Below are positions 4,964 to 57,049 of a DNA stretch of 64,000 nt, piece by piece. The notes beneath the pieces were generated by a model that searched no databases, was not told the DNA's origin, and worked only from the letters and a program-made list of their open reading frames with translations. The stretch spans positions 9,074 through 73,073 of the forward strand of contig CAIMUX010000086.1 in assembly GCA_903844735.1 (NCBI GenBank), in the 5' to 3' direction. A program made the position numbers and the translations under genes. The stretch is from Candidatus Eiseniibacteriota bacterium. Its GTDB lineage: Bacteria; Eisenbacteria; RBG-16-71-46; CAIMUX01. Positions within the stretch are counted from its first letter, which is position 1. Every line of letters begins with the position of its first letter.

Positions 4964-5009
4964 GGGTGATGGAGGGAGCGGCAGGGATCGCCGCTTCGGG
5001 AGGCCCAGC

Positions 5010-5351
5010 ATGCTGATTCTCACAAGGAAGTTCGGGGAGAACATCCGGATTGGGGACAAGATCAAGATCATCATTCTCGATGTGAAGGGCGGCCAAGTGA
5101 AACTGGGGATCGATGCCCCCGCGAACATCACCGTCCACCGCGAGGAGATCTACGAGCGAATCCGTGAGGAAAACCGCCGCGCTTCAGGGATTTCGGCGAA
5201 GGCGCTCCGGGACGTCGCCCACATTTTCAACAAAGGGAAGAGTCAGCGGGCCATCCGCCGGGGCGGGGGCGACGCGCCAACCGTGAGCGAGGTGGACAAC
5301 GGCGGGGACGACGGGGAGGACGACGACGAGGACCAGCAGGACGACCGCTAA
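5010..5351 (+). CDS. csrA: Carbon storage regulator CsrA (flagellin translational repressor, FliW partner) with a long acidic C-terminal extension
   Basis: '[53 protein letters not shown]' is a textbook CsrA core. ATG at 5010 is preceded by GGGAGG. The product is 113 aa, versus 60-75 typical, and ends in '[18 protein letters not shown]'. Confidence 0.85.
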
Positions 5352-5477
5352 GCTTGCTCTCTTTCTCTCCCCTCTCCGTGCGGCCGCCGGGATCCAGCCC
5401 TGGCGGCCGTTTTGCTTCTGCGGTGGGGTCCACCTGTCACGTTGTCTTTCCACTGTCGCTTCGACGGTATCTTTTTC

Positions 5478-5504
5478 TAAAGGTTCCTTCTCGTCACCCG
5501 AAAA
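5478..5504 (+). promoter_or_regulatory. Candidate sigma-28 (FliA) class-III promoter for the flagellin gene
   Basis: 'TAAAG-N15-cCCGAAAA' (ctaaaggttccttctcgtcacccgaaaac) approximates TAAA-N15-GCCGATAA, about 100 nt upstream of the flagellin ATG. Flagellin genes are typically sigma-28 dependent and fliA is present at 56279. Confidence 0.3.
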
Positions 5505-5517
5505 CAAGAGTAAGGCA

Positions 5518-8359: not shown

Positions 8360-8785
8360 ATGAGCGGGACTGATTCGATCCAGGACGTGACCTGCGAACG
8401 CTGCGAGGGGGCCTTCGACCGCGCCGAGTCCCTTCTGGATGAGGGCAGGCTGGAAGAGGCTATGCGCGTGCTTCAGGGGAACGAGGCCGGGCTTCGGCGG
8501 CTGGCTCAGACGGCGATAGTGGCGGCGCAGTCCAGGGAGGAACGCCGCCTTGTATCGCCCGTGGGCCGGTATGCGGCGGTTGCCGTTCCGCAAGGCGCGG
8601 GCTACCCTGGGGTGAGTGTCGGGTCGGCTCGGCTGTCGGTGCTTCTGGGCCGTACAGGCCGTCTGCTCAGCCGCTGCGAGGCGATGCGGGACGAGCACGT
8701 GGAGGAGCTCCGGTTGCTTCAGGTTAGCCGCCGCTTCCAGTCCGGTCCGTCGGTTGCCGGCACCTGGTTCAGCCGGGAGGCCTGA
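8360..8785 (+). CDS. Hypothetical protein at the position normally occupied by fliT (after fliD)
   Basis: 141-aa ORF. N-terminal CxxC ('CERCEG') followed by a helical Ala/Arg-rich region. No recognisable family. Calling it a CDS rests mainly on synteny and the lack of alternatives. Confidence 0.3.
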   Translation: MSGTDSIQDVTCERCEGAFDRAESLLDEGRLEEAMRVLQGNEAGLRRLAQTAIVAAQSREERRLVSPVGRYAAVAVPQGAGYPGVSVGSARLSVLLGRTGRLLSRCEAMRDEHVEELRLLQVSRRFQSGPSVAGTWFSREA

Positions 8786-8838
8786 TGTCTACGTCCCGGC
8801 GCCAGGATGACGCCGGCGGGAAGGAGCAGGAGGATACC

Positions 8839-9318
8839 ATGGCGGTCGAAAACGTGGGACGTGGCAACATCGTCCCGATCGAGACACTCCGGCTCAACCG
8901 CTTGGCGCGGGAACGGGACGAGACGGCGGCTGTGCGCACGAACCGTGCCGAAGCGGTGGACGGGGTGAACCCCGTGAACGGGGACGTGACGGAGGCCCAA
9001 CGCGCGGCTGGGGCCCGACGTGCGGCGGAGGCCCGCCCACGCTCCGCAGAGGACCGGGCGCGGCTCGTCGACCGATTCAAATCGGAGACCGCTGACTTGC
9101 CCGAGGTCCGGCGGGACAAGGTGATCGAGGCCAAAGTTCGGATCTCGACCGGTTACTACAACAACGACGAGGTCCGTCGCCAGGTGCTGCGCTCGGTTCT
9201 GGCGAATCTCCTGCCACCCTCATCGTCGGCCCGCCCTCTGCCTGAGGTGCCACCCGAGGCCCCGGGCGAGGCCGCCGTCAAGGGCGGGTCCGCGCCGGCC
9301 CCGTCGAACGAAACGTAA
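8839..9318 (+). CDS. flgM: Anti-sigma-28 factor FlgM
   Basis: C-terminal 'RRDKVIEAKVRISTGYYNNDEVRRQVLRSVLANL' matches the conserved FlgM C-terminal sigma-28-binding region (VxxxKxxIxxGxYxxDxxKxAxxLL). ATG 8839 is preceded by AAGGAGCAGGAGG. ORF 8785..9318 offers an earlier in-frame start. Confidence 0.6.
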   Translation: MAVENVGRGNIVPIETLRLNRLARERDETAAVRTNRAEAVDGVNPVNGDVTEAQRAAGARRAAEARPRSAEDRARLVDRFKSETADLPEVRRDKVIEAKVRISTGYYNNDEVRRQVLRSVLANLLPPSSSARPLPEVPPEAPGEAAVKGGSAPAPSNET

Positions 9319-9382: not shown

Positions 9383-10291
9383 ATGGACCGCGACACGAAG
9401 CACGATCAGCCGGGAGACCCGGGCCAAGCCTCTCTGGTTCGGGCGGGGGGCACCCGCGGAAACCCGCCCTGGGGGGAGGCCACGCCGACCCTGCGGCCGG
9501 AGCCCGGGATGCGTGTGCGGATTCTCATCCCGATCGATGACAGCGATGGCGTTGCCGCCCGCGTCGTCGAGGTCAAGGACGACCGGGTGCTGCTCCGGGT
9601 GTCCCGAGGCACGGATTCCCAAGGGCGGGCCCTTGTCTCCGGCGGCCGGGTGCAACTGCTCCTCGGCGGGCGAGACGCGGCCCATCTCTTCGATGCCACC
9701 GTCCTCTCCCGCCCCGAAGATGGATTCATCGCGATCCTCCTCCGTGGGCACCCTTTGCGGTTGCAACGCCGGGACTACTTCCGGCTGGCGGTGCGCCTCC
9801 CGATCGCGGTCTGCCTTCCGATCCCAGTGCACCAGGACAGGGAGGACGCGATCGGGGAGTCCGGAACAGGGGATCGGGAGTCCGACAAGGATGATGAGGA
9901 CGATGAGCCGATGTTGTCCGGGTCCATGCCCGGCTCGGCCGGCGGGTCGGCGCAGGAGACCGAGATCGCCGAGGCTGTCAGTGTCATGGAACCATCCCCG
10001 ATGGCCCCTGAGATCCGGATTTTCCGCCTCGCCGACCTGAGCGGCGGCGGTTGTCTTTGCCTAGATCCCGAGGATCTGCTGAGGCCCGGCAGCGTCTACG
10101 GGGCCAGTCTGGATCTCCATGATGACGAGCCGGCCCTTCACGTAAGTGTCGAGGTCGTTCGGCGCGGGATTTCCCTCGGGTATCCCTCCGCCGGCCTCCG
10201 CTTCGTTACCCTCGCGGGGAAGCACCGCGAGCGGATTATGCGGACCCTCTTTCGCGAACATCACCGGCGGGTAGCCACCGGCCGGATCTAG
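9383..10291 (+). CDS. YcgR/MotI-like PilZ-domain protein (c-di-GMP flagellar brake candidate) with an acidic insertion
   Basis: PilZ motifs 'QRRDYFRLAV' (RxxxR) and 'DLSGGGCLCL' (DxSxGG) are present. N-terminal 'MRVRILIPIDD...VLLRVS' resembles the PilZN/YcgR N-domain. A roughly 60-aa Asp/Glu-rich insert separates the two motifs. An alternative start at ATG 9509 has a better RBS. Confidence 0.6.
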   Translation: MDRDTKHDQPGDPGQASLVRAGGTRGNPPWGEATPTLRPEPGMRVRILIPIDDSDGVAARVVEVKDDRVLLRVSRGTDSQGRALVSGGRVQLLLGGRDAAHLFDATVLSRPEDGFIAILLRGHPLRLQRRDYFRLAVRLPIAVCLPIPVHQDREDAIGESGTGDRESDKDDEDDEPMLSGSMPGSAGGSAQETEIAEAVSVMEPSPMAPEIRIFRLADLSGGGCLCLDPEDLLRPGSVYGASLDLHDDEPALHVSVEVVRRGISLGYPSAGLRFVTLAGKHRERIMRTLFREHHRRVATGRI

Positions 10292-10614: not shown

Positions 10615-12318
10615 TTGGCCGGCGCCAAGGAAGCGGTGCACCCGGGTGGTCCGGGCTGCGGTCATGGAAGGCCGACCGCTTTGGCGCAGATGGAACCCGC
10701 TATGGATGCCACGGAGCCTCGTCCTCGCCACGGGGAGGACGCCGTCGTATGCCCGGACCCGCTCGCGCGCGAGATCTTTGCGCGGATCCTTGGGACGGTC
10801 GCTGCCTGTCTCTATGCCCGCTTTCCCGACGGCTCCCTGCACCCGGTCCATGCCTCCGGCCTGGAACTCGAACCTCGTGGGGCCTGGACTCACGAACTGA
10901 AATCGGCCGCCCCCTGGGGGGCGGCGCCACCCGGCGCGGTGACGGCGCTGGCCGCGTTGCCGCGCCGCGCCGGCTTGCCTGATCCCGATTCGTCGCTGTG
11001 GCTGCGCCCCCTCCGTTGCGGCCGCGACATCGCCGGCGGATTGCTCCTGCGCGTCGCGGGACGAACCGTTCCCGCGGCCCTCCGCCGACGGCTCGATGAT
11101 CCGGTGCATCTGGGTACCCTGACCGCACTCATCGAGTGGAGTCGTGCCGGGATCGAGCTCGAAGCGCTCCGGGGCTTTCGCGAGGCCGTGTCCTCGGCGC
11201 TTCCGTACGGCGTGCTGGTCGTGGACGGGCTCGGTCGCGTCACATGGACTGGAGGCCGTGCCACCGCGATTCTCGGCGTGAGTGCGGAAGAGGCGGCGGG
11301 CAGCGACTGCGCGCGGATCTTCCGGCCGGTGGGCCTGGAGCTGCACCCGATCCTGGAAGGACTGCGCGGGAGGGTTCACTCCGGCGAGATCGTCCTGGCT
11401 CGTGCCGACGGTGAGGAACTGCCGGTTTCGCTGGAAATGGCGCGGCTGCCCGGGCGAGGCGGGCGTAGTCACGGGTTGGTGGTGCTCTTTGCGGATCTGT
11501 CGGAGGAGCGTGTCTTGGAGGAGACCGCGCGGCAGCGCGACCGCCTGGCCGCGCTCGGCGAATTGTCTGCCGGGGTGGCTCACGAGATCCGCAACCCTCT
11601 GACCGGAATCGCCAACTGCGCGCAAGTCCTGCGGGAAGGGATGGAAGAGGAGGACCCTCGCCATCGCTTTCTTCGCATCATCCTCGACGAGACGGCGCGA
11701 CTGAACCGCATCGTGGAGGGGCTTCTTTGCTACGCCCGGCCGAACCGTCCCGACCTGCGCGACACCGTCATGGAGGAGCTCGTGCGTCACGCCATCGACC
11801 TCGTGCGGTCCGGGCTGGAGGCAAACGGGATTCGCGTCGGCTACAAGCTGGGTGGGCGGATCCCGCGGATCTTCGTGGATCCCGCGCAGGTCGAGCAGGT
11901 GCTGCTCAACCTGCTGCGCAACGCCGAGGAGGCGATGCCCTCCGGAGGCGAAATCGTGGTTGCGATCTCGGTGGTGCGGCGGCGACCCCATCGGCGGCGC
12001 GGCCTGGGGCGGCGGGCCGATGACCGGATGCGGGTGCGACCGCGCGATGACGGCCCGCTGGTGCGATTCGTCTCGGTTCGCGTGGCCGACACCGGACCCG
12101 GCATCCCGCGCGAACTTCTCCCGCGGATCTTCAATCCTTTCTATAGCACGCGGAGCAAGGGAACCGGGCTGGGACTTTCCCTTTCGCAATCGATCGTGCG
12201 AGAGCACGGGGGATTCCTCACGGCCCGCTCGGTGGTAGGCAAAGGAACCGTCTTCCATCTGGATCTACCGGTGGAGAGGAGGCAAGGTGAGCGACGGCAG
12301 GACCAGCGACGCGCTTGA
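10615..12318 (+). CDS. Sensor histidine kinase (PAS/GAF-like N-terminus, HisKA, HATPase), FleS/FlrB/NtrB-type
   Basis: H-box 'LSAGVAHEIRNPLTGI', N-box 'LLNLLRNAEEAM', G-boxes 'VADTGPGIP...GTGLGLSLS'. The start is ambiguous (ATG 10690 is an alternative). Confidence 0.8.
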   Translation: MAGAKEAVHPGGPGCGHGRPTALAQMEPAMDATEPRPRHGEDAVVCPDPLAREIFARILGTVAACLYARFPDGSLHPVHASGLELEPRGAWTHELKSAAPWGAAPPGAVTALAALPRRAGLPDPDSSLWLRPLRCGRDIAGGLLLRVAGRTVPAALRRRLDDPVHLGTLTALIEWSRAGIELEALRGFREAVSSALPYGVLVVDGLGRVTWTGGRATAILGVSAEEAAGSDCARIFRPVGLELHPILEGLRGRVHSGEIVLARADGEELPVSLEMARLPGRGGRSHGLVVLFADLSEERVLEETARQRDRLAALGELSAGVAHEIRNPLTGIANCAQVLREGMEEEDPRHRFLRIILDETARLNRIVEGLLCYARPNRPDLRDTVMEELVRHAIDLVRSGLEANGIRVGYKLGGRIPRIFVDPAQVEQVLLNLLRNAEEAMPSGGEIVVAISVVRRRPHRRRGLGRRADDRMRVRPRDDGPLVRFVSVRVADTGPGIPRELLPRIFNPFYSTRSKGTGLGLSLSQSIVREHGGFLTARSVVGKGTVFHLDLPVERRQGERRQDQRRA

Positions 12319-13711
12319 GTACACGCTCATGGTGGTGGACGACGAAGAGTCGATCCGCATCACCCTGGGCGAGGCGCTGTCCAACGAGCGGACCACCGTG
12401 CATACGGCGGGGACCGGTGGCGGCGCCCTCGAAATTCTGGAGCGCGAGCCGGTCGATCTCGTCCTTCTCGATCAGAACTTGAAAGTGTCGGGGGAGAACG
12501 GCATCGAGGTTCTGCGCGAGATTCGGCGTCGTTTCCCCGACACACTGGTCATCATGATGACGGCGTACGGGCGGATCGAAGCAGCGGTGGAGGCGACCAA
12601 GCTGGGCTGCTTCCAGTACATCACCAAGCCACTGGAGATCCCCCAACTACGGCTGCTCATCAAGAGTGCCCTGGCCACCGTCGAGCTACGCAAGGAGGTC
12701 GAGGTCCTGCGCAGCCAGCAGGAACGTGAGTTTGACGGGGAGCGCATCTTCGGCAGCAGTGAGAAGATGAAGGACCTCCTCGATAACGTGAAGAAGATCG
12801 CCCGCAGCGGCACCTCGACCATTCTGATCCGCGGCGACACCGGCGTAGGAAAGGACCTTATCGCCCGGGTCATTCACCAGACCAGCTCCGCCGGCAAGGG
12901 GCCGTTCGTAGTGCTGAATTGCTCGGCGGTGCCGGATAATCTGCTGGAGAGCGAACTCTTCGGCCACGAGCAGGGGGCTTTCACCGATGCGCGTCGCCAC
13001 AAGCGCGGGCTGCTCGAGATGGCCGACCGCGGCACGCTGTTTCTCGACGAGATCGGGGAGATGCCGGCGGGGCTGCAGTCCAAGCTCCTGCGCGTCCTCG
13101 AAACCAAGACGTTCCGCCGACTGGGCTCCACCACCGACATCCGGGTCAATGTTCGCTTCATCGCCGCCACCAACAAGGATCTCTTCCAGGAGGTGGAGGC
13201 GCGCCGCTTTCGAGAGGATCTCTACTACCGCCTCTCGGTGATTCCGGTCTATGTACCGCCGCTGCGCGAGCGGCGCGAGGATATCGGACTCCTCGTGCGG
13301 TATTTCCTCGATCGCTACAACCTGGAGCTGGGGGGGCGCCTGGCCCGTGTGGCGGATACGGCGATGGAGATGCTGGCCGACTACCGCTGGCCGGGAAATG
13401 TCCGCGAATTGCGCAACGTGGTGGAGCGGCTGGTGCTCATGCACCCGGGGCCGGAGGTGCTGCCGGAGGATCTTCCGGAGCAGGTACGGCTGGGAACCGT
13501 CGCGCTCCGTCCGGATGAGGAGAGCGAGGAGGTCGTCATCCGCAGCGAACGGGTGGTTCCTCTGGCGGAACTGGAAAAGGCCGGTATTCGCGACGCCTTG
13601 GCCAAACTCCAAGGGAACAAGACCCGTGCGGCCGAGCTTCTCGGGATCAGCCGTCAGACGCTCCGCACGAAGGTGCGGGAGTACGGGATCGAGTCCATCG
13701 ATACGGAGTGA
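12287..13711 (+). CDS. Sigma-54-dependent response regulator (REC + AAA+ sigma-54 activator + Fis-type HTH), FleR/FlrC-like
   Basis: 'MVVDDEESIR' receiver, Walker A 'GDTGVGKDLIARVIH', GAFTGA 'GAFTDA', 'ESELFGHEQGAFTDA', C-terminal HTH 'LLGISRQTLRTKVREYGI'. GTG start overlaps the kinase stop. Confidence 0.85.
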   Translation: MSDGRTSDALEYTLMVVDDEESIRITLGEALSNERTTVHTAGTGGGALEILEREPVDLVLLDQNLKVSGENGIEVLREIRRRFPDTLVIMMTAYGRIEAAVEATKLGCFQYITKPLEIPQLRLLIKSALATVELRKEVEVLRSQQEREFDGERIFGSSEKMKDLLDNVKKIARSGTSTILIRGDTGVGKDLIARVIHQTSSAGKGPFVVLNCSAVPDNLLESELFGHEQGAFTDARRHKRGLLEMADRGTLFLDEIGEMPAGLQSKLLRVLETKTFRRLGSTTDIRVNVRFIAATNKDLFQEVEARRFREDLYYRLSVIPVYVPPLRERREDIGLLVRYFLDRYNLELGGRLARVADTAMEMLADYRWPGNVRELRNVVERLVLMHPGPEVLPEDLPEQVRLGTVALRPDEESEEVVIRSERVVPLAELEKAGIRDALAKLQGNKTRAAELLGISRQTLRTKVREYGIESIDTE

Positions 13712-13930
13712 GCGGGGCGCCCTCGGTGGCCAGAGACTGACCAGTCGACCCGGCTAACTGTCCGAGCCGTGACCACCTGCGTGTTCGCGAGAGTACCTTG
13801 CGTCGTCCGCCCCACTGCGGGCCAACATTGCCCGCCAGCGGCAATTCTTTCCCCCTCCGCGAGTTGAGCGGAAGCCCGGATCTGGGATGCCACAACATCT
13901 AAGCCGGCGCAAGAGTTGGCATCGTCCTTG

Positions 13931-14320
13931 ATGCGGAAGCTCGGCGGCCGCGTCGGCCGCTGGAGGTGCCACATGCTCTCGGTAGCCAGCTTTTTCCAGG
14001 GAACCGCTTCGGGTACCGCCCGGCCCGCCCGGCGAAGCCTCGCCGCGCGCGAGGAAGAGCGCCGCCGCCTCAGCGCGGCGATACAAGAGCTCTCCGAAAC
14101 TTCGCGCGTCGCCCTCGCCCTGCGGTACTTCGAGTCGGCCCGGCCCCGGCAGATCGCGATCGTGCTGGGTATTTCGGAGGAGCGGATAGAGGCGATCCTC
14201 GTGGACGCGGTTCGGAACGTGGCGGAGATTCTGCGCCGGCCGGAGGTCGTGACGCCGGCGGCGTCCGGTCCGCGACCGCGCGCGCGCCGGACCTCGGCTC
14301 GGAATGTAGGCCGGTCGTGA
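13931..14320 (+). CDS. Orphan sigma-70 region-4 (HTH) domain mini-protein with no region 2
   Basis: 'LSETSRVALALRYFESARPRQIAIVLGISEERIEAILVDAVRNVAEIL' matches sigma-70 region 4.2. All three upstream frames hit stops within 260 nt, so there is no room for region 2. 129 aa from ATG 13931. Confidence 0.4.
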   Translation: MRKLGGRVGRWRCHMLSVASFFQGTASGTARPARRSLAAREEERRRLSAAIQELSETSRVALALRYFESARPRQIAIVLGISEERIEAILVDAVRNVAEILRRPEVVTPAASGPRPRARRTSARNVGRS

Positions 14321-14334: not shown

Positions 14335-15411
14335 ATGCGGATCCTGGCCGGGTCGACGCTGGCCGCGACCGTTCCCGTCGCCGCTCGAAGGATCGGCATC
14401 CCGTTCCTGGCTGCCGTGGAAAGCGTCCCGCTGGTGGAGGAGATCCGGCGGTTGCTTGCCGCATTGCTCGGCGATGTCGAGGTGGAGGTGGTCCCGCAGG
14501 AAGGGCCCCTAGCGTTGAACCGGCTTCGCGGGGCTCGGTCACGCCTGGTCTTTCTGCCGATGGATCTGCGGCTGATGGAAGGGCTGACGCTCTTGCGGGC
14601 CTTGCCCCCGGCGCGGGCCCGCCAGGTGGTCCTGCTCGTTCCTGACACGGTGGAGGGATATCGGGTGGCGTGGGAGGCGCTGTGCCTGGGCGCACGCGAC
14701 TTCATGGTCACCCGGGGTGCGCCTCCGCAAAGGCTGAAGGGCGGGACCGCTGCGCGGCTGCGCCAGTTGGCCCATCTGATCAGCGCGGATGATGAGTCCC
14801 CGGCAGCGGAGTCTCTCACCTGGCCCAACTCGCCGTCGCGGCCGGCATCGTGTCTCGAGACTGGGGCTGAGGAACCGACCCGCCCCGGCGCGTCGGCCCT
14901 CGACCAGGCCGCGCCCTGGTTGCTGTTGCCGGAATCGCGGCACCTGGCCGGGCTGGCGGCATGGCTGCGGGTGCTGCCGCTAGGCGTTTCCGCGGTGGTG
15001 CGCGTGCCCGAAGGGGTCCGGTTTCTGCGGGTCGTGCGCGAGGGACTGGGACGTCTGGTCCAGCGACCGGTGCGCGAGCTGTCGGACGGGGACCGACTCG
15101 TGCCGGGGCATGTTCACCTATGGACCGACCTGGAGGTGCTCCGGGTCTGCGGCGAGGAATCATTCGTCCGCGCGCGGCTGTCTCCTTTGGCGGAGGCACC
15201 GGGGTCCTGGGGTGCACGGCGCGAGGTTCTCACCGCGCTGCTCACATCGCCGGTGTCGCTGCGACTCGCGCTGCCGGACGCCGATCTCGCGGAAGAAGAG
15301 GATCTCCTTGCCGGAGCCCGGCGGCACTCGGTTTTCCGGCTTGAGCCCGGTCCCGGGCCGGCGGGAGCCGCCCGCGAACCGGTCGAGGTTCTTGGGGGCA
15401 GAGCCCCCTAG
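14335..15411 (+). CDS. Degenerate CheB-like protein (receiver-like N-domain + methylesterase-like C-domain missing catalytic residues)
   Basis: N-terminal 'SRLVFLPMDLRLMEGLTLLRAL...VVLLVPDTVEGYRVAWEALCLGARDFMVTRG' resembles a CheY/CheB receiver. C-terminal 'LLLPESRHLAGLAAWLRVLP...VRELSDGDRLVPGHVHLW' parallels the CheB 'GASTGG...vqHmp...eaxdGexlxpGxvyiAP' layout, but the Ser/His positions are substituted. Weak, by-eye call. Confidence 0.35.
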   Translation: MRILAGSTLAATVPVAARRIGIPFLAAVESVPLVEEIRRLLAALLGDVEVEVVPQEGPLALNRLRGARSRLVFLPMDLRLMEGLTLLRALPPARARQVVLLVPDTVEGYRVAWEALCLGARDFMVTRGAPPQRLKGGTAARLRQLAHLISADDESPAAESLTWPNSPSRPASCLETGAEEPTRPGASALDQAAPWLLLPESRHLAGLAAWLRVLPLGVSAVVRVPEGVRFLRVVREGLGRLVQRPVRELSDGDRLVPGHVHLWTDLEVLRVCGEESFVRARLSPLAEAPGSWGARREVLTALLTSPVSLRLALPDADLAEEEDLLAGARRHSVFRLEPGPGPAGAAREPVEVLGGRAP

Positions 15412-15566
15412 CGGCGCAAAGCGTCCTGCGGGGGAGCGGTCCACCCATCGGAAAGCGCGGCCCTCCGTTCGGAAGGCACAGCCTCCGTTCGGGGGACAAG
15501 CGAGCGGCGGAAAGGAACCGTCGCGGCGTGAGGCGGCCTGAGCACAGAGGAGCGGGGGCGAGGACG

Positions 15567-17636
15567 ATGGTCAGCGAAGGCGGCAAGCATAGTGGGGTCA
15601 GACGGGGCGAGCGTGGTCGACGCATCCTGGAGAGGCCAGCGGGGACTCGCTGCCTGCCGCTTCTCATGGCTTTGCTCCTGGGTCTGGCTCCCGCGGCGGC
15701 GCGCGCCGGGGACATGGAAGGCCCACTCAGCGGGACCCGTCGGCCGGGCGCGCCGTCCGAGGGCGATTACCGGCTGGAACGGATCCGCTTTGAGAACGAC
15801 GGTGAGTGGCTGCGCATGACGATTCCGATCAAGGCGCCGTGGGCGCACTGGACGCTCACCGACCCGCCGCGCATCATCGTCGACCTGGGTCAGACCACGA
15901 GTTTTCTGTCCAAGGCTCCCGGTCTCTACCAGGCCCGACTCGACCGGGGTCCGGTGCGCACCGTGCGGACCAGTCAGTTCCTCTACTCGCCCCTTGACCA
16001 TCGCGTGCGCATTACCCTCGACCTGTCGGAGGTGGTGCCGTACCAAGCACGCCGGGTCGGTGACGAGATCCAGATCCTGATCCCCGACCGCGGCGCGCGC
16101 ACGCCGCGCGCGGTCATGATCGGCCCGGCCGGGATAGCCGGGATCGACGGCGATCCCGCCCTGGCGAACGGGACATCCCCGTCTGCGGCCGGCGGAATCG
16201 CGACCGGCGCGATGATGACGACCCTCGTGCCCCTGTCCCGACTGAGCGCGCCGCGTCCCGATGCTGTGCCGTCCGAGGTCGCCTCAGGGGAGGCTGCGCG
16301 AGCTGACGAAGAGCCGGCGCAGAAGGTCGTGTCCCTCCTGGCGGGGGGCTCGGCCCAGGTGGCCGGGGGTACGGCAGACGGAGCAAACCGTCCGCCGGCG
16401 AGGACGTTGATGGACGCCCTGAGTGAATTCGGCGGGATCGCGGTCGAGCCTGTCGCCGACGACGAGACCGACCCACCCTCTGTGTCCCCATCACTGGGGC
16501 TGGTCTCTCGCGACGGCGACGCGGTGCCCGGCTCGCGTGAGCTCGCACCGTCCCCGACTGACGTCGGGTCGGTCTCCCGCGTCGGTGGAGCCGCGACCGC
16601 GACTTCGCGGTCCACGCGCGCCTTGCCCCCCGCGCGAGCCCGCCTCACCTTCGTGCCTGCCTCCTCTCCGGGCGCCAGCGCCTCGGCGGCTTCCTCTCCC
16701 ACCGCCTCGGTGCGCGAAACGCCGCCCGCGGGGGAGATGGATGGTGAGGGGGCGACCGGTTCCGCTCCGCCGGTGCCCCCCAAAGAACGTAGTGCGGCGC
16801 GTCTGCTGCGCCAGGCCGTGCTCGCCACGCTGCGAGGAGATCTTAAGACGGCCGGGGCGACGGCAGAACGGGCGCACCGTTTCTATGCGGGAACCGCGTC
16901 GGGTGATCAGTGCGGTTTCCTGGCCCGGGAGATCTTCCTCCTCCTGAAGAGACCCGCCGACGCAGGCCGGTCGGCAGCACTGCCCGCGTTGCCCTCGCTT
17001 CCCGACACCACGCGGTTGCCGCGCGCCCTCTATCTGTCCTTTGTCGACCAGTACCGGCGATCAGGTGACCTGGCGGCGGTCGACCGGGTGCTGGGCCAGT
17101 GGGGTCCGGCCTACAGTCCCCTGCCGGGGTTGGGAGCGCTGCAGTATGCGATGGGCGAGGCGTTCCTCCGCGCCGGGGACGCGGCCGCCGCCGAGGAACA
17201 CCTGCGCATGGTGCCTCCGGGCGACTCGCTCCACGTGCCCGCGCTTCTGCTGATCGCCCTGGTGCAGGATCGCCGCGGCGAGCGTGAGTCGGCCCTGGAG
17301 ACCTACCGCCAGGTGACCGCCCTGGGGCCGGGGCCGTACCAGGCGCGAGGACTGGCGCGTACGGCCGATCTGGAGTTCCAGCTCGGACGCGTCCACGAAG
17401 CCCTCGCCTCCTACGAACGCCTCCTGCAATCGAGCCCTCCGCGCGACGAGGAGGTTTGGGCGGTATATCAGGCCGGCAACTGCCACTTGCTGCTCGGCGA
17501 GTCTACGCCGGCCAAGGAGCGCTATGAGACCGTGGCGAAGCTGTGGCCGCAGTCGTTCTGGGCTCCCTTCGCCAAGGAACGGCTGGAGGAAATGACGTGG
17601 CGTGCCCAGTGGGCGGCCGGGAACGGTGTGCGATGA
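15567..17636 (+). CDS. Secreted AMIN-domain protein with Pro/Ala/Ser-rich linker and C-terminal TPR repeats
   Basis: Signal peptide 'LPLLMALLLGLAPAAARA'. AMIN-like 'YRLERIRFENDGEWLRMTIPI...PPRIIVDLGQT...RVRITLDL'. C-terminal TPR-like 'AMGEAFLRAGDAAAAEEHLRMV...ALETYRQVTALGPGPYQARGLARTADLEFQLGRVHEALASYERLL'. Confidence 0.55.
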   Translation: MVSEGGKHSGVRRGERGRRILERPAGTRCLPLLMALLLGLAPAAARAGDMEGPLSGTRRPGAPSEGDYRLERIRFENDGEWLRMTIPIKAPWAHWTLTDPPRIIVDLGQTTSFLSKAPGLYQARLDRGPVRTVRTSQFLYSPLDHRVRITLDLSEVVPYQARRVGDEIQILIPDRGARTPRAVMIGPAGIAGIDGDPALANGTSPSAAGGIATGAMMTTLVPLSRLSAPRPDAVPSEVASGEAARADEEPAQKVVSLLAGGSAQVAGGTADGANRPPARTLMDALSEFGGIAVEPVADDETDPPSVSPSLGLVSRDGDAVPGSRELAPSPTDVGSVSRVGGAATATSRSTRALPPARARLTFVPASSPGASASAASSPTASVRETPPAGEMDGEGATGSAPPVPPKERSAARLLRQAVLATLRGDLKTAGATAERAHRFYAGTASGDQCGFLAREIFLLLKRPADAGRSAALPALPSLPDTTRLPRALYLSFVDQYRRSGDLAAVDRVLGQWGPAYSPLPGLGALQYAMGEAFLRAGDAAAAEEHLRMVPPGDSLHVPALLLIALVQDRRGERESALETYRQVTALGPGPYQARGLARTADLEFQLGRVHEALASYERLLQSSPPRDEEVWAVYQAGNCHLLLGESTPAKERYETVAKLWPQSFWAPFAKERLEEMTWRAQWAAGNGVR

Positions 17637-19101
17637 GCCGTGCGACGAAAGCACCGGCCGACCTATTGGGGGGAACGCCTCTCCATCCGAGACGCACGCC
17701 CCCTTATACGAAGGGCACGGCTCCCGCAAGCGGGGGGGCGCCGGGCGGGAAGGCCGTGGCACACGGATCTGCCTCGCCGGTGAGGCGTCAAACAAACGCC
17801 CGAACGGCGTGCGATTCGGGAGAACTCGACTCGCTGCGGCGCCTTCTCGAAGGGCGCGAGCAGCTTTGTCTCATCCTCGAGGAACTGCTGGAGGCGTCCA
17901 CGGACGGAGTGGTCGCGCTCGATTTCCGTGGGCGCGTGGTCCATGTCTCCGGGGCGCTTTTCGGTTGGGCTGCGGGCCGGGATGGTGCGGCGAATCCGCC
18001 GGGTCCGCGGGGCATAGCAACGGCGTCTCCGGATCAGTGCCTCCCTCGTTCGGTGCGCCAGCGGTTGCGCCGCGAGGCAGCGGGGATCGAGGCGGGCGAG
18101 ACGATTCGCTTCGAGCTCCCCTGGTCGCGCCCTGACCGCGGCACGGAACTCTATCGCGTCGTCGCCACCGCGGGCACCGATCTGGCAGGCAGTCCCGCTC
18201 TCGCGAGGCGCAGCCCCGCCGAGATAGGCCAGGGTCGCGCCGAAACAGGACGCGGTCCCGCCGAGACAGGACACGGCGGACGCCTCCTGACCCTTTTTGC
18301 GTTCTTCGACCGCACGCGCGAAGCGACGGTGGAGCGCGAGCTCGCCGAGGCGAGAAACTTGGCGGCCCTCGGGCAGATGGCGGCCACAGTGGCTCACGAA
18401 CTTCGCAACCCGCTTGGAGCCATTCAGGGATTTGCCGGCCTGTTGAGCCGCGACCTAGTCGGGCAGCCCGCCCTCTTGCGGCAGGCGGAGCGGATCCTTC
18501 GCGGGGTGGAAGGGGCCAACCGCATCGTAAGCGACCTGCTTGAGTATACGCATCCGGTGGCGCCGCGGCGGGAGTCGGTGTCGCTTTCGATTCTGCTGGC
18601 GGAAAGCATCGCAGCGTGGCGTGCTTCGACACCGTCGCCTGGCCGGACGGAGGTTGACCTGTGCGTCGACCCCGATCTTCCCGATTGTTTCTGCGACGCG
18701 CGGCTCGTGCAGCAGGCGCTGCAAAACCTCTACGCCAACGCGGTTCAGGCGATGGGCGAGGAAGGGGGCACGCTCTTCGTGCGGGCGCGGGCCGCGGGAC
18801 CCGCGGGACGGCCCGACCGGTTGCGCGTCGTGGTGCGCGATACCGGATGCGGACTGGGCGCCGACGAAGTAGCGCGGATCTTCCAACCTTTCTACACCAC
18901 GCGCCCCGGCGGAACCGGCCTGGGGTTACCGCTGGTGCGGCGCATCGTGGAAGCGCATGGCGGCCATGTCCACGTGGTGAGTGCGCCGGGTCGCGGGACT
19001 TCCGTGGTCATTGACCTGCCGGCGGCGAGCCTCGAGTTGCCGAGCGGCCGGGACGAACCCGGCGAGGAGGATGTCGCGGGGGTCTGGGAGGAGAGAGCGG
19101 T

Positions 19102-19105
<4 letters not shown>
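17633..19105 (+). CDS. Sensor histidine kinase (second, paralogous), cytoplasmic-type
   Basis: 'LAALGQMAATVAHELRNPLGAIQGFAGLL', 'LQNLYANAVQAM', 'VVRDTGCGLGADEVARIFQPFYTTRPGGTGLGLPLVRRIVEAHGG'. ATG 17633 overlaps the upstream stop (ATGA). Confidence 0.8.
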
Positions 19106-20535
<1,430 letters not shown>

Positions 20536-20677: not shown

Positions 20678-22468
20678 TCACGAAGTAGATCCCCGTCGGG
20701 AGGGACCGGCTGTCGGTCCCGAAGTTGTCCCACTCAGCGTCCAGCTCCCGGGCCGGTATTCCTGCTCGCCGCCGAACGGGTCTGTCAAGCGCCGCCCGCC
20801 CGCGTCGAACAAGGTCAGGCGCAGCGTCGTGCTGCGTCCCACGGCCATCCCGAGCCGCGCCTTCCCCGTGGACGGATTCGGCATCATCCGGCAGCGAAGA
20901 CGATCGTCCGCGGGCAGGCCGCCTGGGCCGGAAGGATCGGGGTCGTCTTCGCTCGGCGCGTCCACGCGGAGATCGACAACGTGCAGCAAGTGGTCACTGG
21001 CGCCGGAATCGGCTGCCTGCAGCCCGCGAGCGGCGAGACTGTCGGCCGACATACCCGACGGGTCGAGGACGAAATGGTTTGCCGGTGACACGGCGGAGTC
21101 GTTGTACACGAGATAATCGATCCGGCCGGGCCAGAATGTGCTCTCGGCGCTGAGCCACGTATAGCAGAGCCGCCTCTCGGTCTGCCGTGAGATTACGTCG
21201 GTGAGCGATCCGCCATCCCAATCGGGAGCGAAGTCGGGTCCGAAGGTCGCGTTGTCGCTGATGTTTCCCGTCAGCAGCGACGTGCGCGTCCCCGATGCGC
21301 CGACGAAGTTGGTGTCGCCCATGAAGAGGATCGCCGCTCCCGGGGGTAAGTCCGGCGATCCGCCCGGGTTCATGGCATCGCGGATGAAGGACAGGATGCG
21401 GTCGATCTCCTCTTGGCGTCCGGCATCGTTGTCGCAGCAATAGAGATGCACATTGATCACCAGAGTCCGCTTGCCGATCGCCGCCTCGGTGTCGAGGCAG
21501 ACCGCGAGGTTGCCATCCAGCGGCCACGATCCGAGCACGGGGTAGCGGCTGACGGTGATGCAGTCGTGGTTTCCGGCGGCGTACCAGGTGCCGGGCAACC
21601 ATGAGGCGACGAGAGCGCGGGTCACCTCCGGCGTGTGGTCATAGATCTCCTGGAAGCTGAGAATATCGGGAGCCACGGCCTGGATCTGTCGCTCGAACTT
21701 CGGCCGGAGGGCACCGTTCCACGGTCTGTCCGAGAGCACGTTCCAAGTCGCGACGCGCAGGTCGGTGGTGAGCCGCCGGGCCAGAGGCAAGGGTGTTTCC
21801 GTGATCGGCGGACCCTGGTCGAGCTCGTAGGAAAGTGTCCATCCCGTGTTCGGGAGGACGTCGCCGCCGGTGTCGGTGTCGCGGAGCAGCACCCGGATGG
21901 TTCTGCCCGCGTCGCCGAGGAACAGCGGATGGGTCCCGTCGGGCAGCGCATCGCGGCGAAAGGCAACCTCGAATGCCGTGCCGCTGAACGTGGGCAGGCC
22001 GATGAAGCCGCAGTCGTTCCAGTGCACCGTGACCTGCATGGCGCCGGAGTAGAAGGTCCCGGACTTGTGGCCCGGGCGCCAGACGAGGTCGGCGCCGATC
22101 CCGTTCACCGGCTGGCCGGTGGCGGCGTTGTTGTCGGTGTCGAGGGCCAGGTTGATGTTGTTCCCGCCGTTCAAGAGCAGATCCGCGCCGACCTCGAAGC
22201 GGATATAGAGGTGCCGCGGGTCGTCGGCGAGCCAGAGACGGCGGAGGTCGATGCCACTCGCGCCCGCGTCTCCGGACGCGTCGGTCCAGGCTGGTGCGGC
22301 GGCGCCCCAGTCCTCGAAGAAGCCGTCGAGGACGACCGGAAGCCTTTCGGCGCGGGCGGTGGACGCGATTCCGAGGACGGCCATGAGAGCCAGGAAGGTG
22401 GCCGCGGGCCCCCGGCGGGGAACGGGGCGGACGAGTCGGAACGGACATAAATGGGGGGTCGGATGCAT
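20678..22468 (-). CDS. Secreted endonuclease/exonuclease/phosphatase (EEP) family protein with T9SS-type (Por) C-terminal sorting domain; C-terminus frameshifted
   Basis: Signal peptide 'FLALMAVLGIASTARA'. EEP motifs 'ATWNVLSD', 'ILSFQEI', 'FMGDTNF', 'DHLLHVVDL'. C-terminal 'MPNPSTGKARLGMAV...LRLTLFDAGGRRLTDPFGGEQEYRPGS' matches the first half of a T9SS CTD. The second half ('AEWDNFGTDSRSLPTGIYFVRLDGHDTAGAVRQTVRWVVIR*', ending at 20613) continues in another frame. This implies a 1-nt indel in the CCCGGG run at 20747-20752. The only confident reverse-strand gene. Confidence 0.6.
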   Translation of the reverse strand: MHPTPHLCPFRLVRPVPRRGPAATFLALMAVLGIASTARAERLPVVLDGFFEDWGAAAPAWTDASGDAGASGIDLRRLWLADDPRHLYIRFEVGADLLLNGGNNINLALDTDNNAATGQPVNGIGADLVWRPGHKSGTFYSGAMQVTVHWNDCGFIGLPTFSGTAFEVAFRRDALPDGTHPLFLGDAGRTIRVLLRDTDTGGDVLPNTGWTLSYELDQGPPITETPLPLARRLTTDLRVATWNVLSDRPWNGALRPKFERQIQAVAPDILSFQEIYDHTPEVTRALVASWLPGTWYAAGNHDCITVSRYPVLGSWPLDGNLAVCLDTEAAIGKRTLVINVHLYCCDNDAGRQEEIDRILSFIRDAMNPGGSPDLPPGAAILFMGDTNFVGASGTRTSLLTGNISDNATFGPDFAPDWDGGSLTDVISRQTERRLCYTWLSAESTFWPGRIDYLVYNDSAVSPANHFVLDPSGMSADSLAARGLQAADSGASDHLLHVVDLRVDAPSEDDPDPSGPGGLPADDRLRCRMMPNPSTGKARLGMAVGRSTTLRLTLFDAGGRRLTDPFGGEQEYRPGSWTLSGTTSGPTAGPSRRGSTS

Positions 22469-22911: not shown

Positions 22912-23154
22912 ATGACCCATGCTTTCATGTTTCTCGCCTTCCTGGGGGTCGCGACGGCCCGGGCTCAGGAAAACGGGACGATCGTGGCCTGGGGGGCGAA
23001 CTCGTTCGGCCAGTGCAACGTGCCGGGGCCCGACACCGGCTCCGTGGCGATTGCGACGGGTGGTCAGGACGCCCTGGGTCTCAGGATTCCGGCGCATGGG
23101 GCCTGTTGTCACACCGATGGTTCCTGCGCCTACGGGATCCAGGACAGACGATGA
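22912..23154 (+). CDS. Small secreted RCC1-repeat-like protein (possible fragment)
   Basis: '[40 protein letters not shown]' contains a signal peptide plus one RCC1-like 'WGxNxxGQ' motif. Only 80 aa; its stop overlaps the icmF ATG (ATGA). Weak. Confidence 0.2.
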
Positions 23155-26100
23155 CCCAATCCAACGAGCGATATCAGCTTCGTCACCAGGTGCGCGTCGT
23201 CACCGCGACCAGCCTCTTCGACGGTCATGACGCGGCGATCAACATCATGCGGCGCCTGATCCAGCAGGGCGGAGCCGAGGTCATCCACCTGGGCCACAAT
23301 CGCTCGGTGGCCGAGATTGTTGAGGCCGCTATCGAAGAGGACGCCCAGGCTGTGGCTGTTTCTTCGTATCAGGGTGGCCACAACGAGTTTTTCCGCTATA
23401 TGGTCGACATGCTGAGGGAGCGCGGCGCGGGGCACATCCGTGTCTTCGGTGGCGGCGGCGGTGTCATCCGTCCCGACGAGATCCGCGAGCTTGAAGCGTA
23501 TGGCGTCGAGCGCATCTACGATCCCGAGGACGGCCGCAAGCTAGGCCTTTCGGGCATGATCGACGATCTCCTGGAGCGCGCCGACTTCCACACCATCAGC
23601 GTTCCGGGCTCCGACGATCCGAGCACCAAGGGCGCGGCCATGCCCGACCCGAGCCGGCTCACGGTCGACGACCACGCCGCCGTGGCCCGGTTGATCACCC
23701 TGACCGAGATGGGTGCCGGCGCCTACGACTTCGTCTCCGCGGCGGTCCGCGAGCGGGCGGCGAAAAGTCAAGCCCCGGTCGTTGGCATCACCGGCACCGG
23801 CGGCGCGGGCAAGAGCTCGCTCGTCGACGAATTGGTGCGCCGATTACGTCACGACCATCCCGACAAGCGCCTGGCCGTGCTCTCCGCCGATCCTTCCAAG
23901 CGTCGCACCGGCGGGGCCCTGCTCGGCGACCGCATTCGCATGAACGCCATCCACGGCTCGGACGTTTACATGCGCTCTCTGGCCACCCGCGGCTCGCGCA
24001 CCGAATTGCCCGACACTATCCGCGACGCCATCGATGTCGTTAAGGCCGCCGGCTTCGATCTCATCCTCGTCGAGACCTCGGGCATCGGTCAGGGCGATAC
24101 CGCGGTCGTCGACATCTCCGACGTGGCCGTCTACGTCATGACCGCCGAATTCGGCGCCCCGACCCAGCTTGAGAAGATCGATATGATCGACTACGCCGAC
24201 CTCATTTCGATCAACAAATTCGAACGTAAGGGCTCCGACGACGCGCTGCGCGAGGTGCGCCGCCAGTTGCGCCGAGCCAGGAACGCATTCGATGTCGAGC
24301 TCGAAAACCTGCCCGTCTACGGCACCATCGCCTCCAAGTTCAACGACGAGGGTGTCAACGGCCTTTACGCCGGTCTGTGCGAGATCCTCGCCAGGAAAAA
24401 GGACGCGGGCTTTGTCTGCAAGTTGCCGGCCTCGGTCATCTCCCGCACATCCAGCCAGAAGTCGCTCATCCCGGTGGATCGCAACCGCTATCTCGGCGAG
24501 ATCGCGGACGCGGTCCGGGGCTACAAAGCCAGGGCCGCCACCGAGGCCGAGCTCGCCCGTCAACGTCAGCACCTTACCTGCGCCGCCGAGTTGCTCGACG
24601 GTTCGGCTCGCGAGGCCGCGCTGCTGAAGCGCGCTGAGATCGACAAGCGGCTCTCGCCCGCAAGCCTTAGCCTCATCGAAGGCTGGCAGTGCCTGCGCGA
24701 CGCCTACGCCGGCGATACCTTCACCTACAAGGTGCGCGACAAGGAATTCCATTTGAACATCAGCTCCGAGACGCTGGCCGGAACGAGGATCCCACTCGTT
24801 GTCGTACCCGACCTCAAGGACGATGGCGACAAGCTCAGCTACCTGATGCTCGAAAACGTCCCCGGCGCCTTCCCCTTCACCGGCGGCGTCTTCCCCTTCA
24901 AGCGCGATGGCGAGGATCCCAAGCGCCAATTCGCCGGCGAGGGCGGCCCGGTCAAGACCAACCGCCGCTTCCACTACCTGACGCGCAACGACGACGCGAA
25001 GCGCCTCTCCACCGCCTTCGACTCGGTGACACTCTACGGCGAGGATCCGGCACCGCGTCCCGACATCCTAGGCAAGGTCGGCGACTCGGGCGTCTCGATC
25101 TGTTCCCTCGAGGACATAAAGAAACTCTACGCCGGGTTCGATCTGCTCCACCCCGGCACGTCGGTTTCGATGACCATCAACGGGCCGGCGCCGATCATGC
25201 TCGCCTTCTTTTTCAACGCTGCCATCGATCAGCAGGTCGATCTCTTCGTTGCCGATCACGGCCGCGCCCCGAGTCCCGGGGAACACGCCATCATCCGCGC
25301 CAAGACCTTGTCCACGGTGCGCGGCACGGTGCAGGCCGACATCCTCAAGGAAGATCAGGCCCAGAACACTTGCATCTTCTCCACCGAGTTCGCGCTTCGG
25401 ATGATGGGCGATGTCCAGGAGTTCTTCATCGAGAACGACGTGCACAACTACTATTCGGTTTCGATTTCCGGCTACCACATCGCCGAGGCCGGGGCGAACC
25501 CCATCTCCCAGACGGCCTTCACCCTGGCCAACGGCTTCACCTACGTGGAGTACTTCCTCTCGCGCGGCTTTCCCATCGACTCGTTCGCCCCCAACCTCTC
25601 GTTCTTCTTTTCCAACGGCATGGACGCCGAGTACACGGTTATCGGCCGCGTGGCGCGCCGCATCTTCGCCGTGGCGATGCGCGAGAAGTACGGCGCGGCC
25701 GAGCGCAGCCAGAAGCTCAAGTACCACATCCAGACATCGGGCCGCTCGCTGCATGCCCAGGAGATCCAGTTCAACGATATCCGTACCACGTTGCAGGCGT
25801 TGCTCGCGTTCTACGACAACTGCAATTCGCTGCACACCAACAGCTACGACGAGGCGATCACCACTCCCACCGAGGAGTCGGTGCGCCGCGCCATGGCGAT
25901 TCAGCTCATCATCCTGCGCGAGTTCGGTCTCACCAAGAACGAGAACCCGTGGCAGGGCTCGTACGTGGTCGCGGAGCTGACCGAGTTGGTCGAAGAGGCG
26001 ATCCTCTGCGAGTTCGAGCGGCTCTCCGAGCGCGGCGGCGTGCTCGGCGCCATGGAGACCCAGTACCAGCGCGGCAAGATCCAGGACGAATCGATGCTCT

Positions 26101-50345: not shown

Positions 50346-50408
50346 CTCCTTCCCCTCTCGCCTCCCCCTTGGGCGGCCTTTGGATAGCGTCATGGGGGGA
50401 TCGCCGAC

Positions 50409-56278: not shown

Positions 56279-57049
56279 ATGCCCATCAGTCAGGCGGTGC
56301 GCAAAGCGGCGCCGGCACCTTGTCCGCAGCAGGCCCAGGTGGTTGAGAGCCGGGATACGGCGCTGCGCCGGTACTTCCCTTTGGTCAAGTATGTGGTCGA
56401 TAAGATCGCCGCCGGACTGCCGAAGTCGATCGATCGGGACGACCTGATCAACACGGCGCTCATCGGCCTTTTCGACGCCCTCGAAAAGTACGATGCCGAC
56501 CGCGGGACCAAGTTCGAAACCTATGCCATCTGGCGGATCAAGGGGGCAGTCCTCGACGAACTGCGCACCATGGACTGGGCCTCTCGCACCACCCGCCGCA
56601 AGGCGCGCGAAATCGAGAAGGTCTCGCAGCGCCTCGATCAGAAGATGGGGCGCGGGGCGACCGAGCAGGAGATGGCTGATGCTCTGGGCATCTCGCAGCA
56701 TGAGTTCATGCGCCAGTTAGAGGAGGTGCGCGGCACCGTGCTCCTCTCCCTAGACCAGTCACTGCAGGTGGATGACGAGCACGACATCGCCGGTCTCGCC
56801 GACATGATCGAGGACAGCACCGTCGAGAACACCCTGGTGACCATCGAGCGGGAAGAGTCCCGCTACTTCCTTCTCGACTTAGTCAATGGGCTGACGGAGC
56901 AGGAACGCCTCGTGGTCGCTCTCTACTACTACGAGGAGATGACCCTGAAGGAGATCGGCGAGACGCTGAACATCTCCGAATCGAGGGTCTCCCAGATCCA
57001 CACCAAGGCGATCCTGCGCCTCAAGGGAAGGCTGGGCCGGCCCCGCTGA
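56279..57049 (+). CDS. fliA: Flagellar sigma factor FliA (sigma-28 / SigD)
   Basis: Region 2 'YFPLVKYVVDKIAAGLPKSIDRDDLINTALIGLFDALEKYDADRGTKFETYAIWRIKGAVLDELR', region 4 'LTEQERLVVALYYYEEMTLKEIGETLNISESRVSQIHTKAILRLK'. Confidence 0.9.
   Translation: MPISQAVRKAAPAPCPQQAQVVESRDTALRRYFPLVKYVVDKIAAGLPKSIDRDDLINTALIGLFDALEKYDADRGTKFETYAIWRIKGAVLDELRTMDWASRTTRRKAREIEKVSQRLDQKMGRGATEQEMADALGISQHEFMRQLEEVRGTVLLSLDQSLQVDDEHDIAGLADMIEDSTVENTLVTIEREESRYFLLDLVNGLTEQERLVVALYYYEEMTLKEIGETLNISESRVSQIHTKAILRLKGRLGRPR

Follow-up and report, generated by a model that had tools for sequence, protein, structure and literature searches.

Flagellar cascades that combine sigma-54 with sigma-28 are textbook systems, and in most lineages the coupling between the two tiers rests on the export of FlgM alone. 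Mimicry of a sigma factor is known from PhyR, in which a sigma-like domain titrates the anti-sigma factor NepR (PMC8103513), and a sigma factor divided between two proteins is known from SigO-RsoA of Bacillus subtilis, where sigma-4 and sigma-2 come from two neighbouring genes (PMC8103513). Pseudomonas sigma-28 reads the -35 box TCTAAAG with residues S224 and Q228 of region 4, and FlgM contacts L187, I191, L200, A203, L204, Y206, E209, and L210 of the same region (PMC12784957). The present analysis concerns a stretch of 64,000 nucleotides (nt), hereafter the window, from contig CAIMUX010000086.1 of a Candidatus Eiseniibacteriota bacterium, and within it a small gene (13973..14320, plus strand) encoding a stand-alone sigma region-4 protein, here called mini-sigma-4. 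With a probability of roughly 0.35, this protein mimics region 4 of sigma-28 and acts through binding to other proteins, probably FlgM and a CheB-fold partner encoded next to it, and not by reading a promoter.

The product of the gene was matched by the Pfam profiles Sigma70_r4 (E = 2.4e-7, 30.6 bits against a cut-off of 24.1) and Sigma70_r4_2 (E = 5.5e-7, 29.6 bits against 25.7), in both cases over residues 45–97 of a version of 129 amino acids. The Pfam scan gave no Sigma70_r2 or r3 match in the product. An earlier note on this DNA had described a stand-alone region-4 protein without region 2 and had called for a search with these two profiles; both exceeded their curated cut-offs, and that description stands. 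The note had also argued that no space is left upstream for region 2. All three forward frames contained stops in the 220-nt gap that follows the end of the preceding activator gene (13711), so that region 2 cannot be encoded there. Since the predicted product has no sigma-2 domain, mini-sigma-4 is not a functional sigma factor by itself.

The open reading frame (ORF) ended with a stop codon at 14318–14320, in the frame given by the earlier note, and the length of 129 amino acids claimed there has to be revised. The true start is almost certainly the ATG at 13973, which gives 115 amino acids and a stop, and not the ATG at 13931. Among 18 close homologues, 12 have exactly 115 amino acids and 4 more have 112–118, with N-termini reading MLSVAS, and the exact 115-residue product was already present among the NCBI, JGI, Logan, and ENA gene calls. 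The ratio of nonsynonymous to synonymous substitution rates (dN/dS) was 0.9–4.5 for the 57 in-frame nt upstream of 13973, which were conserved at all codon positions, and 0.27–0.43 between loci for the coding sequence itself, with 0.16 for the folded domain of the closest pair. On these three grounds, homologue lengths, upstream dN/dS, and public gene calls, starts at 13931 or 13916 were dropped. A Shine-Dalgarno sequence, GGAGG (13962..13966, plus strand), lies 6 nt before the ATG at 13973 and occupies the same place in every locus compared, and the ATG at 13931 falls within the -12 element of the conserved sigma-54-type promoter described below. The G+C content at third codon positions of the ORF was 0.83, equal to that of the neighbouring genes.

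The mini-sigma-4 proteins are a sharply bounded, conserved family by sequence criteria, not a set of fragments. When 1.84 billion representative proteins were searched exhaustively with a profile, 26 clusters were obtained at E<1e-10, which measured 100–154 amino acids except for one 51-residue fragment and nearly all aligned from residue 1. Many other short region-4-only proteins followed in the same search at E of about 1e-7 to 1e-6. A search with a broad alignment gave about 34 family members at 85 bits or more, and the next matches, ordinary sigma factors, reached at most 58 bits. The typical length in the family was about 100–170 amino acids, and one call of 79 amino acids looks truncated. 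Natural fusions of the family domain with other domains were also sought; the long matches were ordinary extracytoplasmic function (ECF) sigma factors with extensions and were uninformative. One member is annotated as Candidatus Eisenbacteria, and one has been named 'sigma factor-like helix-turn-helix DNA-binding protein' by NCBI. Among 185,579 GTDB species representatives the gene is present in one only, so that little taxonomic information can be drawn from it.

The family consensus begins with MLSVxxLxQEA, continues through a basic linker and the domain R.EERR.LA.AI..LPE..RL.LALRYYESLRP..IA.VLG..E..V..LL, and ends in a basic tail. The N-terminal motif and basic linker of the window protein (residues 1–22, 13973..14038, plus strand) read MLSVASFFQGT at the start and were predicted to be disordered, with a predicted local distance difference test score (pLDDT) below 50. 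The motif was nevertheless as conserved as the core, at 2.94 bits per position (helix 2, 3.29; helix 3, 2.93); across the family M1 is invariant and L7 nearly so. The four-helix sigma region-4 domain (residues 23–88, 14039..14236, plus strand) was defined by an AlphaFold2 model, with helices at residues 23–38, 42–52, 58–65, and 69–88 and pLDDT values of 77–87, and by matches to PDB structures. Its helix-turn-helix (HTH) comprises residues 58–88 (14144–14236, plus strand). The remaining residues, 89–115 (14237..14317, plus strand), form a basic tail of net charge +6 that was predicted with low pLDDT and is disordered; the tail is basic throughout the family, and its sequence is not conserved. 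The linker carries +3 and the domain 0, for a total of +9, and the isoelectric point (pI) of 11.7 is due to the tails. The best solved relatives were the sigma-4 domains of WhiG, SigF, and FliA; the Foldseek E-values were weak (0.03 or higher), which is attributed to the disordered tails, and only the identity of the top matches was used.

The sequence relationships point in the same direction, to a likely FliA/WhiG origin. Mini-sigma-4 shares 35% identity over 65 residues with region 4 of the complete FliA (sigma-28) encoded in the window (56279..57049, plus strand; Pfam regions 2, 3, and 4). Ten full-length matches were chosen by a sigma-28-like length of 241–301 amino acids from matches that also included shorter, ECF-sized proteins; FliA/WhiG was the best NCBIfam family for all ten, and seven passed its cut-off. 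The FliA/WhiG model TIGR02479 itself aligned with mini-sigma-4 at 31.5 bits against a cut-off of 189.6, over profile positions 156–219 only. The candidate target is also present in the window, as an FlgM-like anti-sigma-28 protein (8785..9318, plus strand) with a Pfam FlgM match of E = 6.3e-4, below the family cut-off. Its C-terminal stretch, EVRRDKVIEAKVRISTGYYNNDEVRRQVL, is one that we take to be FlgM-like, and a gene with a weak FlgM match lies at the equivalent place in locus L005.

The hydrophobic residues that FlgM contacts in sigma-28 have conserved counterparts in mini-sigma-4, whereas the surface that reads the promoter is not maintained. The FlgM-contacting hydrophobic residues L187, I191, L200, A203, L204, and L210 of the Pseudomonas protein were matched by conserved L33, I37, V/L46, A49, L50, and A/L56. 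The residues equivalent to S224 and Q228 are E70 and A74 and vary within the family, whereas the S and Q are kept in FliA of the window (ISESRVSQ). Among 42 non-redundant members, the exposed positions of the recognition helix scored 3–4 on a scale of 0–9, the lowest values in the folded domain, whereas the buried residues L76 and A79 and the helix-2 residues R45, L48, L50, R51, and E54 scored 8–9. The recognition helix held 2.25 bits per position against the 3.29 of helix 2, and its net charge was -2.1 +/- 1.3 (n = 53) against +0.16 +/- 0.85 in 85 other sigma region-4 domains. A variable, acidic recognition helix argues against conserved sequence-specific reading of DNA and against competition for the sigma-28 -35 box. 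A sigma-28-type promoter, TCTAAAG-N15-CCCGAAAA, was observed at 5476–5505 upstream of the flagellin gene (5603), with a -35 box identical to that of Pseudomonas fliC. In the flagellin leader, a hairpin rich in GGA and the Shine-Dalgarno sequence GGGAG were seen, in line with control by CsrA and FliW.

The gene directly downstream (14335..15411, plus strand) encodes a CheB-fold partner of 358 amino acids, which was assigned by profile, AlphaFold2, and Foldseek comparison. Its family profile matched full-length CheB (PDB code 1a2o) with E = 6.8e-11, and the AlphaFold2 model (pLDDT 78.7) matched the same structure in Foldseek with E = 3e-14. In the 1a2o alignment, the phospho-acceptor D56 was replaced by P, K109 by A, and the catalytic H190 by an invariant R, and S164 was variable. 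A manual extension of the alignment gave a further replacement of D10 by V, and D286 lies outside the alignment. With the phospho-acceptor aspartate and the catalytic histidine replaced, the partner is a pseudo-receiver joined to a pseudo-methylesterase (pseudo-CheB). The earlier note was correct in placing a CheB-like gene 14 nt downstream, in both fold and spacing, and missed that both the receiver and the enzyme are degenerate. Twenty-four homologues of the partner were found, which form one tight family with no more distant relatives, and the distribution of a pseudo-CheB without relatives outside its family gives no functional hint.

Eight distinct loci were compared, namely the window, L001/L002, L003, L004, L005, L006/L007, L008/L009, and L010, and this set takes in members just 34–37% identical to the window protein. 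Mini-sigma-4 and pseudo-CheB were paired in all eight. The order histidine kinase, sigma-54 activator, mini-sigma-4, CheB-fold gene was likewise found in 8/8 loci, with an intergenic region of about 250–450 nt before the mini-sigma-4 gene. The genes of mini-sigma-4 and its partner share 4 nt in L003–L010; in the window and L001, 14 nt separate them. The kinase and activator genes lie directly upstream in seven loci and are separated from mini-sigma-4 by two genes in L004. Further downstream, where the contigs reach, an AMIN/TPR gene, a second kinase with its sigma-54 activator, and then flgB/C and fliE–I were found. In the window, the upstream pair comprises a PAS histidine kinase (10615–12318) and a sigma-54 response-regulator activator (12287–13711), together spanning 10615..13711 on the plus strand and assigned by Pfam. 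The AMIN/TPR protein, third gene of the block (15528..17636, plus strand; Pfam AMIN and TPR), has an uncertain start codon. The second histidine kinase and its activator occupy 17543..20535 on the plus strand (Pfam); the real start of the kinase is probably near 17777, and the activator lies at 19102–20535. In L004 (5312–9476 of CAYYQN010000009, the sole GTDB representative with the family), the two inserted genes encode 962 and 421 amino acids, the intergenic stretch GGTCAGAGACTG...GCCCGAGTCGTGGCC is duplicated, and a run of N marks an assembly gap.

The mini-sigma-4 gene is preceded by a candidate sigma-54-type promoter, TGGCAT-cgtcc-TTGAT (13917..13933, plus strand), whose -24 element is canonical and whose -12 element is not, with GA instead of GC; the earlier note had missed it. 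The consensus used for comparison had GG at -24 and GC at -12 with a 10-nt spacing (TGGCAC-N5-TTGC). The pattern TGGCAY-N5-TTG occurred three times in the window against 0.49 expected, always on the plus strand and directly upstream of flagellar operons, at 13917 (mini-sigma-4), 26959 (flgB/C operon), and 50332 (flhB). TGGCAY preceded the ATG by 56–66 nt in each of the seven loci compared, and the -12 element read TTGA in five of them, TTGT in one, and TTTC in one; TTGC occurred in none. The conserved non-GC -12 element sets this promoter apart from the two canonical ones of the window, TGGCACGACCGTTGCT at 26959–26974 for the flgB/C-fliE operon and TGGCATGTAGGTTGCT at 50332–50347 for flhB.

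An upstream element at 13827..13852 (plus strand), which occurs once in the window, consists of the palindrome ATTGCC-N7-GGCAAT running into GCAATTCTTTCC. Its motif GGCAAWTNTTTCC, which reads CCAATTGCTTCC in L006, lies 74–78 nt upstream of TGGCAY in 7/7 distinct loci. It is kept in L004 despite the two inserted genes and hence belongs to the mini-sigma-4 promoter. A sigma-54 activator or integration host factor might bind at this element. These arrangements predict that mini-sigma-4 is the first gene of a sigma-54-dependent unit, which the kinase/activator pair upstream probably activates. The octamer TTCTTTCC was observed three times in the window, and two of the copies, at 13845–13852 and 26821–26828, precede same-strand sigma-54 promoters; the octamer may contribute to an activator site, and three copies are not significant alone, as at least three were obtained in 15 of 100 shuffles.

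A G+C-rich hairpin (13936–13972) lies directly 5' of GGAGG in every locus (L001–L010), with differing sequences and an upstream GGA. No claim is made for this leader hairpin, whose folding energy in such GC-rich sequence did not surpass that of shuffles (z values of -0.7, -1.2, -0.5, and +0.45), with L005 alone reaching -3.3. RNAalifold gave no structure common to the leader hairpins of the loci, and an Rfam scan of the window gave no match. Binding of CsrA at the two GGA motifs of the leader would be speculation.

The mechanism favoured here, at the probability given at the outset, would begin with the first kinase/activator pair, which would turn on the sigma-54 promoter. Mini-sigma-4 would then be made in 1:1 coupling with pseudo-CheB and could form a complex with it, possibly via the N-terminal motif. 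The free or released sigma-4 domain would bind the C-terminal helices of FlgM in the same groove as is offered by sigma-28 region 4. FlgM would thereby either be titrated from FliA, as an anti-anti-sigma action like that of the PhyR sigma-like domain on NepR, or be held for export, and either outcome would couple the sigma-54 tier of the flagellar cascade to the sigma-28 tier. Both the proposed target and the mimicked protein, the FlgM-like protein and the complete FliA, are encoded in the window. Together with the FliA/WhiG relatives, their presence indirectly favours a role like the FlgM decoy among the functions suggested in the earlier note, whereas its suggestion of a -35 competitor is disfavoured by the loss of S224 and Q228. 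An extension of this mechanism, in which mini-sigma-4 and pseudo-CheB form a phosphorylation-independent, two-protein counterpart of PhyR with the mimic caged by a dead receiver/CheB scaffold, appears fairly unlikely.

Several points weigh against this mechanism. The top NCBIfam match of mini-sigma-4 was a generic sigma-70/ECF model and not FliA, which makes its FliA origin likely rather than proven, and the FlgM assignment of ORF 8785–9318 stays below the Pfam cut-off noted above. Residue E209 of the FlgM interface of Pseudomonas sigma-28 is not kept and corresponds to S55. The matched hydrophobic residues also build the sigma-4 fold, so that FlgM binding is not the only possible reason for their conservation. 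E and A are also found at two of the degenerate positions of the recognition helix in some true ECF sigma factors. The pI of 11.7 and the basic tails fit nucleic-acid binding equally well. In addition, an early decoy made from a sigma-54 promoter would free FliA before hook completion unless it were checked, and that pseudo-CheB holds mini-sigma-4 in check is assumed.

The best of the alternatives, a possible but not a probable one, is that mini-sigma-4 is a small DNA-binding transcription factor in the style of the GerE/LuxR-type HTH, whose HTH and basic linker and tail would bind a flagellar promoter site and repress or activate it. Its own upstream element or a -35-like box would be the candidate sites. 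The HTH fold is intact in the AlphaFold2 model with good confidence, the net charge of +9 is concentrated in the tails, and conserved, unassigned cis-elements lie nearby. R57-P58-R59 stands at the N-terminus of the first HTH helix, where R57 and P58 belong to the consensus (LRP) and position 59 varies. E585 and R586 of sigma-70, which we take to be -35-contacting residues, correspond to E70 and R71, and ECF sigma factors that do bind DNA also carry E and A at the S227 and Q228 positions. The NCBI name quoted above describes one member as DNA-binding. Against these points, conservation within the folded domain is lowest on the exposed face of the recognition helix, although the loci and with them any target sites are conserved, and the helix is net acidic on average. 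No dimerisation element is evident, and Pfam GerE gave no match at E<=0.1. With S224 and Q228 not kept, competition for the TCTAAAG box at 5476 is not expected.

An unlikely alternative is that mini-sigma-4 is an accessory regulator of the adjacent two-component/sigma-54 system, sensing the state of assembly or of the envelope together with pseudo-CheB and the AMIN/TPR protein and modulating the second kinase or activator; this corresponds to the 'adaptor for activators' of the earlier note. Mini-sigma-4 is the first gene of a compact block that ends with the second kinase and sigma-54 activator, whose genes are tightly packed or overlapping in L005, L006, and L010, and the five genes stay together as a block even in members with 34% identity. 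The partner has the receiver fold and cannot accept a phosphoryl group, and such a protein could dock on a kinase. However, a gap of 140–180 nt precedes the second kinase gene in the window clade, no sigma-54 activator or kinase is known with a sigma-4 domain partner, and the sequence gives no hint of an interface.

It is distinctly unlikely that the free sigma-4 domain binds the beta-flap tip helix of core RNA polymerase or holoenzyme, disturbing -35-dependent initiation by sigma-70 and sigma-28 and sparing the sigma-54 holoenzyme. The conserved residues of the hydrophobic groove, FlgM-covered in sigma-28, overlap the flap-binding surface, and the predicted expression from a sigma-54 promoter would suit this role. 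However, isolated sigma-4 binds the flap weakly, as core affinity comes mostly from sigma-2, and the pseudo-CheB partner and the N-terminal motif would be left unexplained.

That mini-sigma-4 is half of a split sigma factor with sigma-2 supplied by a separate protein, for which SigO-RsoA is the precedent, is highly improbable: among 48 ORFs of the window selected as likely genes FliA alone matched Sigma70_r2, the unassigned small ORFs gave no such match at E<=1, the adjacent co-conserved gene has a CheB fold, and the recognition helix is not conserved. A 3' remnant of a longer sigma gene or an assembly artefact, suggested by the missing region 2 only, is of negligible probability and was rejected, in agreement with the earlier note, which had denied a frameshifted sigma gene, because at least 8 independent assemblies and about 34 proteins show the same length, N-terminal motif, and neighbourhood, purifying selection is evident (dN/dS 0.16–0.43), and a promoter and a ribosome-binding site of its own precede the gene.

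The surroundings of the gene agree with the flagellar context that the earlier note had described, as profile matches identify the genes of the window as a flagellar locus, with 67% G+C. A first block encodes FlgK, FlgL, FliW, CsrA, flagellin, FliS, FliD, the FlgM-like protein, and a PilZ protein. The second contains the PAS histidine kinase, sigma-54 activator, mini-sigma-4, CheB-like, and AMIN/TPR genes followed by the second kinase and sigma-54 activator, and the third encodes FlgC, FliE through FliR, FlhB, FlhA, FlhF, FlhG, and the complete FliA. Between the second activator and flgB, the flagellar block is split by an endonuclease/exonuclease/phosphatase-family gene on the minus strand (20678–22468) and by a gene (23013–26423) for a fused B12-binding/MeaB GTPase/methylmalonyl-CoA-mutase-type protein of 1136 amino acids with an IcmF-like architecture. 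The PilZ gene (9383–10291) adjoins the FlgM-like gene, and a GAF-GGDEF diguanylate cyclase and a GAF histidine kinase (60097–63200) lie at the end of the flagellar locus; the GGDEF and PilZ genes suggest an input of cyclic di-GMP into the flagellar system. In the fliW region (4470–5351), a 1-nt deletion relative to L001 was seen near 4836 (ctcaat-cgagg against ctcaacacgagg), by which the frame runs into csrA and gives a spurious FliW-CsrA 'fusion' ORF of 293 amino acids. The authentic C-terminus of FliW is read in another frame up to a stop near 4962, and the deletion reflects either an error of assembly or a genuine frameshift.

The anatomy and conservation of mini-sigma-4 are solid and its context is suggestive, and from these its function is inferred. 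A conserved region-4-only protein that heads a predicted sigma-54 regulatory operon together with a dead CheB points to an additional, undescribed layer of control. If FlgM binding is true, sigma-factor mimicry, so far represented by PhyR and NepR, would be extended to group-3 sigma factors. If the caged mimic is true, it would be the first sigma mimicry beyond ECF/NepR and a new use of the CheB fold, and the sigma-54 tier would be wired directly to the sigma-28 tier. A function would also be given to one of the many ORFs labelled only 'sigma factor-like HTH protein'. As the lineage is uncultured, the practical impact is limited until in-vitro tests. Searches of the literature on stand-alone region-4 proteins, FlgM decoys, and Eisenbacteria flagella gave no description of the family, its motif, its sigma-54 promoter, or its pseudo-CheB partner.

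When compared with PhyR, the present system shares a degenerate sigma-like domain, probably without a remaining part in transcription, coupled to a receiver fold (PMC8103513). PhyR combines sigma-2-like and sigma-4-like parts with a phosphorylatable receiver in one polypeptide, whereas here two proteins are involved, with sigma-4 only and with an Asp-less receiver (P in its place) joined to a dead CheB domain. The proposed target is FlgM and not NepR. The PhyR profiles matched mini-sigma-4 weakly (NCBIfam E = 7.2e-5, 22.7 bits against a cut-off of 240; Pfam PhyR_sigma-like E = 0.026), and the similarity to PhyR is weaker than that to FliA.

SigO-RsoA shares a sigma-4-bearing protein that is encoded apart from sigma-2 (PMC8103513), whereas no sigma-2 partner was found among the scanned ORFs of the locus and the neighbour has a CheB fold. 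The CheB methylesterase itself resembles the partner in its two-domain fold, a receiver and a methylesterase-like domain; the partner differs in its lost phospho-acceptor and catalytic residues and in a locus that is not a chemotaxis operon. Generic region-4-only ORFs and stand-alone GerE/LuxR HTH proteins are likewise small proteins with a sigma-4 or LuxR-type HTH, but the mini-sigma-4 family is sharply separate from them and is marked by an N-terminal motif not shared with them, by a constant flagellar neighbourhood, and by the pseudo-CheB partner. By profile and predicted architecture, mini-sigma-4 is outside the PhyR, SigO-RsoA, and GerE-type classes. Region 4 of FliA/WhiG shares its fold and its flagellar locus and comprises its nearest sequence relatives. 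Without regions 2 and 3, mini-sigma-4 would neither bind core polymerase as a sigma factor nor open a promoter, and it does not keep the -35 contacts of FliA/WhiG; it adds to the shared domain an N-terminal motif, basic tails, and a predicted sigma-54 promoter.

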